Virus record (IMG/VR): IMGVR_UViG_3300044724_002702
Span: 1-29,882 of that record
Reading direction: 5' to 3' (one strand)
Length of the DNA: 29,882 nucleotides
Source of the DNA: a virus
Taxonomy: Duplodnaviria; Caudoviricetes
Part shown: positions 983 to 24,378 of the stretch, piece after piece
How the letters are laid out: every line of letters begins with the position of its first letter
Numbering within the stretch: the first letter of the stretch is position 1
The notes under the pieces: generated by a model
The model's database searches: none
Told to the model about the DNA's origin: nothing
What the model saw: the letters and a program-made list of their open reading frames with translations, nothing else
Position numbers and translations under genes: made by a program

Positions 983-1011
983 ATTATACTTGATAGCAAC
1001 TAAAAAGTCAA
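983..1011 (-). promoter_or_regulatory. sigma70-type promoter
   Basis: minus strand TTGACT-17 bp-TATAAT preceded by AAAAAATATTTC. Confidence 0.85.
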
Positions 1012-1030: not shown

Positions 1031-1070
1031 ATAAAAAATCCCCGAGTAAGATGGGCTTACTCAGGGATTT
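1031..1070 (-). terminator. intrinsic terminator
   Basis: minus strand AAATCCCTGAGTAAG-CCCAT-CTTACTCGGGGATTT running into a T-tract; U-G pair only on the minus strand. Confidence 0.85.
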
Positions 1071-1517
1071 AAAAAGATTGCTGTCTTTTTAATAATGATA
1101 CAGAACCCTCCACCTATTCCTGTATCCTCAGTTGTAGAGCTTCGCGAAAGCCTCGACAAACAGAGCCAGTTTTTCGATTTGTTAAGGGGGATAGAAAAAC
1201 CACAAAAAAGGTTACCCCCGCGATAGTGGATGCTATTGCTCATATGACCCCGAGTACGAGCGGTCACTCCTCGGCACTTGTTCCTCAGTTGTGCTGCTGA
1301 GACTCCTTGTTATCGTACAGAAGGAACGTTCAACCGTAAACTGCGTTGAACCCAGTGACGAAGTATATGTGCTACGTCTCACAGTGGTGAAGGCGCTACC
1401 TCCACTCCATAACTCGCGTTATGACAATAGGGTCGACGAGGAACCGAGGCGAGGACTGGAAGCCCCGGGTTTTAGGAGTGTCGTCTTAAACCTCACGCAA
1501 TACTCTCCCCATCGAAT
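1031..1517 (-). ncRNA. candidate large structured non-coding RNA (~485 nt), family unrecognised
   Basis: bounded by promoter 1524-1552 and terminator 1031-1070; about ten local hairpins plus long-range complementarity; no ORF that resembles a protein. Confidence 0.7.
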
Positions 1518-1523
1518 ATAAAT

Positions 1524-9642: not shown

Positions 9643-9830
9643 AGGTTTCTCCTACAGCTTTGCCTGTAAAAGGCGATAGGGCGGGGGCGCGTAAAGACTT
9701 TAAGGCTGTGGGTGCCACCCCCAAGGAGAGGTTGAAGGGCTTGCGCGGCTAAAAGCAAGTCTTATCTTCTGATGCACCCCTCTATAAAATGGCAAGTTGC
9801 TTGCCATGCGCACACTGGCGCACTCATTTA
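9643..9830 (-). promoter_or_regulatory. structured ~188-nt 5' leader with SD-occluding hairpin (fourU-like)
   Basis: GC-rich, several stems; CUUUUACAG-GCAAAG-CUGUAGGAG pairs UUUU with AGGA of the SD. Confidence 0.6.
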
Positions 9831-9836
9831 ACACCT

Positions 9837-9865
9837 ATTATAAGTTAATTAGGGCAAAAAGTCAA
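9837..9865 (-). promoter_or_regulatory. sigma70-type promoter
   Basis: minus strand AAAAATAATTC-TTGACT-17 bp-TATAAT. Confidence 0.9.
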
Positions 9866-21991: not shown

Positions 21992-22927
21992 ATGGATAGA
22001 CCAATGCGCGACTTTCTTGATAAAGCATCCAAAGCCTATTACGAAGGCAAGCCTATTATCTCTGACGCTGAGTTTGATTATCTCAGTAGTAAGTATGAGT
22101 ATAATGAGGTTGGGTATCGTTCTGACTTTAAACTCTCCCATATGTATCCTATGCGTAGTCTTCAGAAGGTCTACCCTGGAGATGTGCAACCATTTCCGCC
22201 AGGCACAGGTACAACGGTAGTAACCCCTAAACTTGACGGTGCGGCAGTATCTCTTCGATACTATGACGGACGTTTGATACTAGGTCTTACTCGCGGAGAT
22301 GGGAAGAAGGGTGTAGATGTTACTGATAAGCTAGCTATACACGTTCCTAGCACAATTGACTTTTCTGGTGAAATTCAAATTACTGGTGAACTCGTTTGTC
22401 CAAAGACTATAGCTAATTCAAGAAATGTTGCTGCTGGGTCTCTTAATTTAAAAGACATGGATGAGTTCAAGACTCGACCACTAACATTTGTAGCTTATGA
22501 TATTCAGCCCCACAGAGGTAATCTCTGGTCGGAAGACATGGAAGAGCTGAGATTGCAGGGCTTCAATGTAGTAACCGAGTCTGACTGGCAAGAATTCCCC
22601 CAAGATGGTAAAGTATTTCGACTTGATAGTATTGAAAAGTTTAATGAGTTGGGATACACCGCCCACCATCCTCGTGGTGCTTTTGCCTACAAAGAACAGC
22701 AAGTAGGTGTACAAACTAAGCTGTTAGATGTAGAGTGGAAAGTCGGTAAGTCGGGAGTTGTTTCTCCAGTCGCTATACTAGAGCCAGTAGTTATAGGAGA
22801 AGCTACCGTATCTCGAGCTACACTCCATAATATTGCTTATATTGAGTCTCTTGATCTTGAGATTGGCTGTGATGTTGAAGTTATTCGAAGCGGAGAGATT
22901 ATTCCAAGAATAGTTAGGAGATTATGA
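21992..22927 (+). CDS. ligA: NAD-dependent DNA ligase, subunit A (adenylation + OB domains); start may be 22004
   Basis: ISDAEFD, KLDG, TRGDG, RNVAAGSL, RATLHN, RSGEIIPRI. Confidence 0.95.
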   Translation: MDRPMRDFLDKASKAYYEGKPIISDAEFDYLSSKYEYNEVGYRSDFKLSHMYPMRSLQKVYPGDVQPFPPGTGTTVVTPKLDGAAVSLRYYDGRLILGLTRGDGKKGVDVTDKLAIHVPSTIDFSGEIQITGELVCPKTIANSRNVAAGSLNLKDMDEFKTRPLTFVAYDIQPHRGNLWSEDMEELRLQGFNVVTESDWQEFPQDGKVFRLDSIEKFNELGYTAHHPRGAFAYKEQQVGVQTKLLDVEWKVGKSGVVSPVAILEPVVIGEATVSRATLHNIAYIESLDLEIGCDVEVIRSGEIIPRIVRRL

Positions 22928-23208
22928 TGAATGATGATAATATCTTTCTTTTTGCAGGATTTATAGAGTCTCCTACCCATTTCTCGGGGGCTATAGGCGT
23001 GTATGATTACTTTTGGGCTTTAGAACCTTCTTTAAGAGTAAAATTAATTCAATCTTGGAGAAAAACTATTGACGTTTTAGAAGAATCCCACGAAGATCTT
23101 AATGTAGAAATGGCTGGAGAAGAGTATGGTTCCGTTGCTATTTTTAGCGATGGAGATATTGTTGAAGTAAAACCCCCTAAAGATAATGTATTACCCTTTA
23201 TCCGATGA
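22924..23208 (+). CDS. hypothetical protein
   Basis: 94 aa, ATGA coupling, AGGAG SD; ends DNVLPF. Confidence 0.7.
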   Translation: MMNDDNIFLFAGFIESPTHFSGAIGVYDYFWALEPSLRVKLIQSWRKTIDVLEESHEDLNVEMAGEEYGSVAIFSDGDIVEVKPPKDNVLPFIR

Positions 23209-23567
23209 GTGGAGTTTATAACCTTACCTACTTTGAAAATCACCCTGAAGAAAAAGAACGAGATGGGGTGTTATACTGTGTAGTTCTTGTAAACCGTAAA
23301 ACTAATAAAAGAGAGTGCTTAAAAATTGGAATTGCTTCAGGAAAAAATTGGAAAGACGTACTACGGCGTAGCCGTGGATTTAACAACTATGATATACGTA
23401 TTCAACGTACCTATCATGATACTCTATTCAATGTTTGGACGCTAGAGCAAGCCTTACACGCTGAGTACGCTCACTATCGTTATAAGCCAATGGAAAAATT
23501 TGGAGGGCACACGGAGTGCTTCGAGATCCAAAAAGAAATAATTTTAGCTATACCCGCGAAAAAATAA
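23205..23567 (+). CDS. GIY-YIG/T5orf172-like nuclease-domain protein
   Basis: GVLY...LKIGI...R...LEQALH...FGGHTECF. Confidence 0.65.
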   Translation: MSGVYNLTYFENHPEEKERDGVLYCVVLVNRKTNKRECLKIGIASGKNWKDVLRRSRGFNNYDIRIQRTYHDTLFNVWTLEQALHAEYAHYRYKPMEKFGGHTECFEIQKEIILAIPAKK

Positions 23568-23570
23568 TTC

Positions 23571-23599
23571 TTGACTTTTTCATCTCAATCGCTTATAAT
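23571..23599 (+). promoter_or_regulatory. sigma70-type promoter
   Basis: AAAAAATAATTC-TTGACT-17 bp-TATAAT. Confidence 0.9.
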
Positions 23600-23628
23600 A
23601 TTATTTCTTTCAGTGGAGATATAAATTC

Positions 23629-24378
23629 TTGAAAATACAAGCCCCGACTAATTGTCCTAGTTGTTCTTCCGATCTTATTTGGAAGAATGACTTGTTGTAT
23701 TGTGAGAATGTATCTTGCGAAGGGCAGGGTGTTCAAAAGCTCGAACACTTCGCAAAGACACTGAAGATCAAGGGACTAGGCCCCGCAACGATCGACAAAC
23801 TTCAACTAGAATCTATCTTTGATATTTATAATATGAGTTTGGACTTGTTGACGGAGTTGCTGAGTTCCGAAAAACTAGCAGGTAAGTTGTTCTTGGAAAT
23901 TGAAGGTTCCAAAGCTGCCTCCCTCCAAGAGGTATTGCCTGCGTTCTCTATTCCGCTAATCGGAAAGAGTGCTTCTGAAAAACTATGTTCCGTTCTTTAC
24001 AAACTGGACGACTTATCAGAAGGAGTATGTGAGTCTGCAGGTCTCGGACCAAAAGCTACCCAGAATCTTATGGTGTGGTTTAGGGAAGAGTACTTGCCTT
24101 ACTATAAGTCTTTACCATTCAGCTTTGCTTCAGAAGCCAGTAAACCTAGTACTGCATCTATGGGTATAGTATGTATTACAGGCAAACTGTCTTCTGTTAA
24201 AACTAAAGCTGAAGCGGAAAAAGCACTCGTTGAGGCCGGGTTTAGTGTACGTTCTTCATTAACAAAAGAAGTAACAATCCTACTTAACGAAAGCGGAATA
24301 GAATCCGCAAAAACTAAAAAAGCTAGAGACAATGGTGTCTCTATTTTTACTAATCTTTTTGAACTAATTGGAGTTTAA
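23629..24378 (+). CDS. ligB: NAD-dependent DNA ligase, subunit B (Zn finger, HhH, BRCT)
   Basis: PTNCPSC..LYCENVSC; IKGLGP; IPLIG; VCITGKL...SAKTKKA; TTG start with GGAG SD. Confidence 0.93.
   Translation: MKIQAPTNCPSCSSDLIWKNDLLYCENVSCEGQGVQKLEHFAKTLKIKGLGPATIDKLQLESIFDIYNMSLDLLTELLSSEKLAGKLFLEIEGSKAASLQEVLPAFSIPLIGKSASEKLCSVLYKLDDLSEGVCESAGLGPKATQNLMVWFREEYLPYYKSLPFSFASEASKPSTASMGIVCITGKLSSVKTKAEAEKALVEAGFSVRSSLTKEVTILLNESGIESAKTKKARDNGVSIFTNLFELIGV

Follow-up and report, generated by a model that had tools for sequence, protein, structure and literature searches.

A candidate large structured RNA outside Rfam in the small-gene array of a T5-like phage

Positions 1031-1517 of a 29,882-nt viral contig, analysed here in full and referred to as the window, very probably give rise to a real structured RNA, predicted to be non-coding, transcribed from the minus strand and about 487 nt long including its terminator. 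The initial annotation had proposed a functional minus-strand structured RNA outside Rfam; covariation, pieces of the unit in 8/8 RNA assemblies and the absence of any Rfam match sustain that proposal, and the unit is further set apart by its GC content and by one full-length homologue, L036. The number of large RNAs known from bacteria and phages is small, and both phage classes with solved structures are RNA-only cages of obscure purpose, according to the accessible portion of PMC12286853. A large phage RNA without known function is a known kind, as the available sections of PMC12286853 and PMC5737381 describe it, and this family is uncatalogued, being in no library searched. The present RNA, unrelated to those two classes and carried by a lytic marine T5-like phage, is with its 487 nt short enough for direct transcription, probing and imaging, and it offers a chance to ask whether assembly or protein sequestration is general among large phage RNAs; for now its value is limited, as neither a host nor distant homologues nor a functional read-out are to hand.

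Setting, boundaries and homologues of the unit

The window is a whole viral contig with a completeness estimate of 28%. It is assigned to a T5-like phage on the basis of right-end gene order (split NAD-dependent ligase, D5-like regulator, DnaB helicase, primase and family A polymerase) and of polymerase likeness, the polymerase being 43% identical to those of T5-like Salmonella / Escherichia phages; spanins, Hsp20 and MazG lie left of this replication block. The ligase subunit genes (21992-24378, plus strand) are split by two small ORFs, with an endonuclease-family match at 23205-23567. The RNA unit itself sits 1 kb from the left end of the contig, inside an array of small minus-strand genes.

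All boxes and stems quoted in the initial annotation are found as claimed and at the correct coordinates. Upstream of the unit, a sigma-70-type promoter on the minus strand (1524-1552; TTGACT, 17 nt, TATAAT) matches 11/12 consensus bases and places the predicted start near 1517; both hexamers are kept in L036, where the spacer and the upstream genes differ. At the other end, an intrinsic-terminator-like hairpin with a U tract (1031-1070, minus strand) has a 15-bp stem of -21.8 kcal/mol and a z of -6.3 for its 120-nt window, with one U-G to U-A change in L036; a simple terminator scan missed it. The next promoter (983-1011, minus strand, also 11/12 consensus bases) stands ahead of the small-gene array 950-12 and is present in L036. 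The unit had been described as insulated, which is shown for its 3′ end only: no terminator is listed between an upstream promoter at 2484 and position 1552, so read-through into the RNA unit is possible.

Composition also distinguishes the unit, as had been noticed from the sequence. Its GC fraction is 0.476 (0.502 for 1100-1517) versus 0.398 for the contig, a value reached by only 0.34% of windows of 487 nt, so that the unit exceeds 99.6% of them; unlike the flanking genes with their purine excess (0.546-0.583), it shows none (0.495). Eleven letters are common to the 5′ end of the RNA (1503-1513) and the ribosome-binding region (855-865) of the minus-strand gene at 849; that region overlaps a promoter-like site at 877-848 and is absent from L036. 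Elsewhere, two 120-nt windows on the minus strand, 2221-2340 and 2401-2520, in and just before a metallopeptidase-like gene, fold with z of -4.6 and -3.7 against shuffles.

The homologue L036, the sole match when JGI metagenomes were scanned with a pattern, is a full-length copy, colinear with the RNA unit throughout and 92% identical to it (37/489 columns differ), in which promoter boxes, terminator and downstream promoter are kept, the upstream genes are other ones and the downstream array is partly shared.

Words of the region 900-1700 occur in nine RNA runs from marine, seawater, salt marsh and estuary samples, with eight study codes, several of which, sharing year and habitat, may represent one campaign. 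All eight of the RNA-run assemblies compared gave at least one contig of the unit (151-347 nt, aligned parts all within 1101-1485), an observation which, made on assembled contigs, records presence and not strand, ends or level, with DNA carry-over possible. The longest span is that of one X3 contig, covering 1101-1445. Flanking genes were without cover in four RNA runs (200-2700) and no contig leaves the unit in four runs (900-1700); we discounted this silence of the flanks as evidence, since the runs were picked by this very stretch and no DNA run was compared. The stops of contigs from X1 and X5 at 1107 and from X3 at 1101 fall inside a strong hairpin and were not read as a 3′ end. One 151-nt contig from X5, of depth 2.2, matches 1438-1485 and carries a further 103 letters without likeness to the unit, among them another hairpin; it may come from a divergent variant, from a different RNA bearing the module, or from chimeric assembly.

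Other searches returned no further homologue. Comparison of the RNA unit by blastn with 50,697 phage records gave none, and with 19 and 32 related viral records gave promoters or 14-mers only. Four DNA patterns retrieved 5, 9, 3 and 70 loci from IMG/VR, none of them homologous by nhmmer, two patterns gave 0 hits and 1 chance hit in GTDB genomes, and neighbour genes used as bait (18, 1, 80 and 10 loci) led to no similar unit. Covariance models of the centre (R1, 52 records) and of the 5′ module (R2, 66 records besides G000) found no other carrier, nor did both models in 650 kb of loci or R2 unfiltered in 85 kb; such absence is weak evidence, as the models were built from two sequences, most searched records are fragmentary (only 2 reach 90% completeness) and those closest to the window may be missing from the set. 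The ~500-nt unit of G029 and kin was tried as a homologue and rejected, with alignment z of 0.7-4.6 whose top value came from terminal overlap. A literature search, thin on subscription papers, found no description of this RNA. As judged from the sequences at hand, the family is narrowly distributed, with two full sequences plus fragments so far.

Selection for base pairing along a chain of hairpins

The principal evidence for an RNA comes from a blind test set, namely the eight stems plus terminator named from the window sequence and fixed before any homologue was seen. In L036, these stems contain 9 changed sites, with no broken pair and two compensatory pairs. Placing the same 32 substitutions randomly breaks 5.0 pairs on average and none with P = 0.0024; under a local null in which changes are kept within 20 nt, the probability of no broken and at least two compensatory pairs is 6e-5. 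Reading the same changes as plus strand would break 3 pairs; the wobbles fit the minus strand only, on which the initial annotation had noted G-U pairs in several stems.

The hairpin at 1328-1351 (minus strand, as are all helices below) carries the strongest covariation: a wobble in L036 and, in the X3 contig, three compensatory pairs (1329/1350, 1331/1348 and 1333/1346) plus one wobble. This rewritten form recurs in loose ends of X8 and X9. The TGACC/GGTCA hairpin at 1244-1267 has two compensatory pairs and one wobble in L036. In these rewritten hairpins sequence turns over while pairing stays, from which we infer selection on shape rather than on antisense complementarity.

In the 5′ module (1435-1513), the helix 1513-1505/1443-1435 is one among several alternatives; it has one U-G to U-A change in L036 and buries a Shine-Dalgarno-like GGGGAG, and a loop-loop pairing of GAGG (1494-1491) with CCTC (1454-1451), both invariant, is possible within the modelled module. 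A hairpin at 1444-1468 exposes an 11-nt pyrimidine-rich loop (pair probability 0.78; G-C to G-U in L036) and is followed by a GNRA (GCGA) hairpin at 1408-1423, invariant in L036 and X3 with pair probability 0.95-1.0. The hairpin at 1387-1405 shows two one-sided pairing-preserving changes in L036, one of them also in X3, and a small hairpin at 1368-1383, with an invariant 4-bp stem and a variable loop, has low pair probability in single-sequence folds. A possible hairpin at 1303-1326 is invariant in L036 and has its terminal pair broken in X3 at 1308. The CTCAG/CTGAG hairpin at 1284-1301 keeps its stem and changes its loop in L036, in whose folds it competes with a long-range pairing.

Towards the 3′ end, the GGGGG/CCCCC hairpin with a U-rich loop (1186-1219) shows G-C to G-U in both L036 and X6 and buries the Shine-Dalgarno-like site of a 29-codon ORF. 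A 9-bp hairpin at 1097-1126 is invariant in L036 and its 12-nt G-rich loop is predicted unpaired (0.86); an A-U-rich hairpin at 1069-1092, ahead of the terminator, is likewise invariant in L036 (pair probability 0.68-0.90). A repeat search found the 11-nt direct repeat ACAACTGAGGA at 1282-1292 and again at 1125-1135 (both minus strand); repeats of at least 11 nt appear in 2% of 2000 shuffles, and this one is only partly unpaired in predicted folds (0.23-0.62).

In a model of 16 helices, 13/13 changed stem sites of L036 keep pairing, a count biased towards L036, since the additional helices were picked with knowledge of that sequence; a shuffle control of this model on the two sequences is not significant (130/500). 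Among variants in the RNA contigs, counted by hand, 12/23 changed places lie in the 16 model helices; pairing persists at 10 of these, with three compensatory pairs, and is broken at 2 (1149 in X1 and 1308 in X3). Two full sequences and short fragments are too few for a formal covariation test. Comparison of these sequences shows that several local hairpins are under selection for pairing on the minus strand.

Folding energy, by comparison, carries no weight as evidence for RNA structure. The stems are no more stable than chance: the folding z of the whole unit is -2.28, that of its opposite strand -2.94, and the unit without its terminator has -0.39. This last value, together with the resemblance of the RNA 5′ end to a ribosome-binding site of this phage, is what a non-functional spacer or decayed gene with chance hairpins would lead one to expect. 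Such an origin is hardly credible: two hairpins together show five compensatory pairs, all pairs of the blind stems are kept, and promoter and terminator are conserved in L036.

Long-range contacts suggested in the initial annotation fared unevenly. Pairing of 1474-1480 with 1265-1271 is refuted, 3/7 pairs being lost in L036. Pairing of 1421-1430 with 1233-1243 loses 1/10 pairs there and keeps the rest, and that of 1438-1449 with 1269-1286 survives one change in L036 but competes with other helices. RNAalifold proposes yet another, between the 5′ end and 1221-1239; with six supported helices enforced, the window prefers this helix (0.87-0.91) and L036 the local helix 1513-1505/1443-1435 (0.81-0.90). 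Window and L036 do not differ in two candidate pseudoknots. The data back a chain of local hairpins only, not yet an ornate compact fold, because no distant homologue was found.

A chain of independent hairpins could also be a modular precursor, cut into smaller RNAs or with its modules swapped between phages. The restriction of support to local helices would suit such an arrangement, as would the X5 contig in which 1438-1485 is joined to other sequence, and the second RNA motif of this contig (see below) is found in relatives behind leaders of very different length. We nonetheless regard a precursor as improbable: the X5 contig is a single record of low depth and maybe a chimera, L036 is colinear throughout, the X3 contig spans 1101-1445, and no other carrier of the 5′ module or of the centre was found with covariance models.

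Short ORFs and known RNA classes

The initial annotation saw no credible ORF in the unit. This stands for the longest ORFs, which are not conserved as code, and is qualified by two short ORFs on the minus strand with Shine-Dalgarno sites of gene strength. In the 68- and 60-codon ORFs, 0/10 and 0/4 changed codons are synonymous, and the 29-codon ORF shows a weak excess (5/8). No protein relatives were found for the ORFs 1061-1267 and 1291-1521 (+), and none of eight internal ORF products is present in a collection of ~15 billion proteins, in which both flanking genes tested are present. The 25-codon GTG ORF at 1496-1419 lies behind a Shine-Dalgarno-like site (duplex -8.6 kcal/mol), has a codon score of -0.70 and shifts frame near codon 21 in L036; judging by its sequence, it is probably not translated.

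The 29-codon GTG ORF (1203-1114), the only internal ORF with any coding signal, raises the alternative of a structured messenger or dual-function RNA, whose fold would delay or gate translation in the manner of type I toxin mRNAs or dual-function small RNAs. Its Shine-Dalgarno duplex (-9.9 kcal/mol) has the strength of real genes, its codon score (+0.055) falls at the low end of real small genes (0.025-0.30) and its frame is open in all variants seen. The synonymous excess has P = 0.044-0.085 if this ORF is taken singly, and two of the three non-synonymous changes trace back to a single contig (depth 4.65) and are maybe errors, without which the count is 5/6; with six ORFs tested, the excess is not significant after correction, and the synonymous changes at 1138 and 1141 also preserve hairpin pairing. 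Further against translation, the Shine-Dalgarno site is fully paired in predicted folds, the peptide lacks a long hydrophobic stretch and a Pfam match, its exact sequence is not in the ~15-billion-protein collection, and phmmer, run on 1.84 billion proteins, returned a single hit, an artefact from a repeat in a 2152-residue adhesion-receptor-like protein. Covariation is strongest 130-150 nt upstream of this reading frame. On balance, we consider a messenger role unlikely, if worth keeping in mind.

No Rfam family reached its cut-off in cmscan and, within 900-1700, none had E < 0.5; models of RNase P RNA, group I/II introns, 6S RNA and riboswitches gave no match, the best hits being terminator-like and far below cut-off. 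The statement that the unit lacks tRNA, tmRNA, RNase P and intron signatures is thereby upheld, ARAGORN being empty as well. Membership of a known class in strongly diverged form (two-piece tmRNA, RNase P RNA, intron relic, GOLLD or ROOL) is very improbable. In its favour, a canonical two-piece tmRNA (RF01849) of similar size is carried by 6/43 related viral records (G003, G004, G006, G008, G037 and G051), so that this phage group picks up host-type RNAs. Those tmRNAs are, however, canonical and easily detected, and no Rfam model scores near its cut-off in the unit.

For tmRNA in particular, ARAGORN was empty at default and at 95, 90 and 85% thresholds, with no tag at 85%, and the RF01849 model found no candidate in G000 while controls and relatives scored; as for a T arm with CCA, there is one CCA after a stem and it is changed in L036 and X3. 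The relatives' two-piece tmRNAs resemble the unit in belonging to the same phage group, in length (350-460 nt) and, in several cases, in having their own promoter, whereas the unit is without T arm and CCA, 5′ acceptor strand, resume motif or Ala-ending tag. The tmRNA of G037 sits in a tRNA cluster, tags are intact in all six records, and the tmRNAs of G006 and G051 have an identical intervening segment although their tags differ.

The large phage RNAs GOLLD and ROOL are the closest comparison in setting. According to the accessible parts of the sources, both are found in phages close to tRNA genes, assemble into cages and have no function assigned so far (PMC12286853, PMC5737381). GOLLD is presented there as a large structured RNA of phages and prophages without known function, with one member from a marine sample, often >800 nt and with a conserved 3′ region (PMC12286853), and ROOL as 581 nt on average with six junctions and three pseudoknots (PMC12286853, PMC5737381). 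GOLLD was rejected as an identity: model RF02032 has no match at E <= 1 in G000 and none in cmscan, and the unit has 487 nt; the likeness is that of a large phage RNA without known function, and the conserved 3′ region that the excerpted source attributes to GOLLD is unmatched in the unit. ROOL is likewise large, phage-encoded, without known function and of a similar size class in the available text of PMC5737381, and was also rejected, model RF03087 giving no hit at E <= 10 in 900-1700 (a second empty search lacked a positive control). No tRNA gene occurs in the contig, which is 28% complete and has the RNA unit 1 kb from its end. The unit is GOLLD/ROOL-like in setting only.

Several other classes were considered and dismissed. 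CsrB/RsmZ sponges carry many GGA motifs in loops or single strands. The unit is like them in length, hairpin chain, own terminator and GGA-containing repeat, and the decoy mode proposed below is similar; a sponge of this type was nevertheless rejected with 10 GGA versus 9.3 expected, 1/10 predicted unpaired above 0.5, and no Rfam match. An HDV-like ribozyme gave no Rfam hit, and a loose descriptor, run without a positive control, was empty on both strands. For the hammerhead, two CTGANGA and one GAAA are present, by eye without flanking stems, and there is no Rfam hit. Abundant RNAs of 90-210 nt that still lack an explanation are produced by lytic phages, as stated in the portion of PMC10914365 at hand. 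A covariation survey of IMG/VR intergenic regions, in its accessible part, lists 10,006 viral RNA candidates of 29-151 nt (PMC10690425); the source of sequence is shared with our unit, and the candidates so described reach at most 151 nt versus 487 nt here. Six motifs of this RNA are absent from 6 of the supplementary files of that survey; a hairpin of this RNA may still be among its candidates.

Possible modes of action and a second RNA motif

As a mode of action, we put forward a stand-alone RNA that acts in trans and whose fold offers a protein partner a decoy or scaffold, a reading to which we give an even chance. Host sigma-70 RNA polymerase would transcribe the unit early or in mid-infection, like the neighbouring small-gene units with the same promoter type, and the hairpins and 3′ terminator would protect the RNA from decay. 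The freely rewritten hairpins 1328-1351 and 1244-1267 would then serve as architecture, and the invariant 11-nt repeat, G-rich loop 1106-1117 and pyrimidine loop 1451-1461 as a putative binding surface. The most likely candidate partner would be a host RNA-binding, translation or defence factor.

The same loops could instead act by base pairing, as a regulator or sponge: left unpaired, those rich in pyrimidines or in G would bind a small RNA of the host or the ribosome-binding sites of mRNAs from host or phage. The loop 1451-1461 is predicted fully unpaired and is invariant, GAGG occurs 7 times in the unit versus 2.5 expected (P 0.006, for a motif picked post hoc), and the best duplex with a start region of the contig, that of the gene at 849, reaches -24.5 kcal/mol, matched by 1/30 shuffles. 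That start region is absent in L036, where the gene has another leader; over 37 start regions of the contig, the mean best duplex is -15.8 versus -15.4 in shuffles (sd 0.34), and perfect complementarity elsewhere in the contig extends over 12 nt at most. Taken together, this makes a base-pairing regulator fairly improbable. Antisense action on the contig's own genes was rejected, depending as it does on one duplex (gene at 849) with a site missing from L036.

More speculatively, and as something of a long shot, the unit could represent a third, smaller class of self-assembling phage RNA, in which tracts would pair between molecules; the resulting switchable oligomer or cage would tie up ribosomes or a defence factor and possibly gate the 29-residue peptide. 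Tracts of this kind are present: CCTCG at 1454, 1449 and 1441, and five YGAGG, three of them as the enriched TGAGG, two of which are in the 11-nt repeat. Several mutually exclusive long-range pairings survive in L036, which would fit such self-assembly.

The phage group carries several uncatalogued RNA genes, the window itself containing a second Rfam-negative motif. This motif of ~110 nt (9676-9785, minus strand) lies in a GC-rich unit (9830-9650) with a promoter at 9865 and precedes a Lys/Arg-rich gene with a DUF5824 match. It recurs with compensatory changes in G021, G026, G027, G029, G031, G032, G033 and G034, and its invariant blocks TAAGAC, GGGGGTG and GCCTTAAAG may form a loop-loop pair. 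A covariance model of it (R3), which found two held-out members at E 1.8e-5 and 5.2e-4, found nothing in 1031-1517 or L036 at E <= 10, as did an HMM; a likeness of the 5′ module to this motif failed a controlled test.

In three relatives, at L235:9550-10066 (G029), L258 (G034) and L261:1490-2120 (G033), the second motif ends a stretch of 500-630 nt without a convincing ORF, each with a strong promoter, further shared blocks and no Rfam match. These stretches form a distinct large RNA candidate whose sequences are more diverse than those of the 1031-1517 unit. Just behind the candidate in G029, near a small cysteine-rich ORF, lies an ORF (L235:10538-10915) that resembles, by eye, an IscU/NifU iron-sulphur scaffold.
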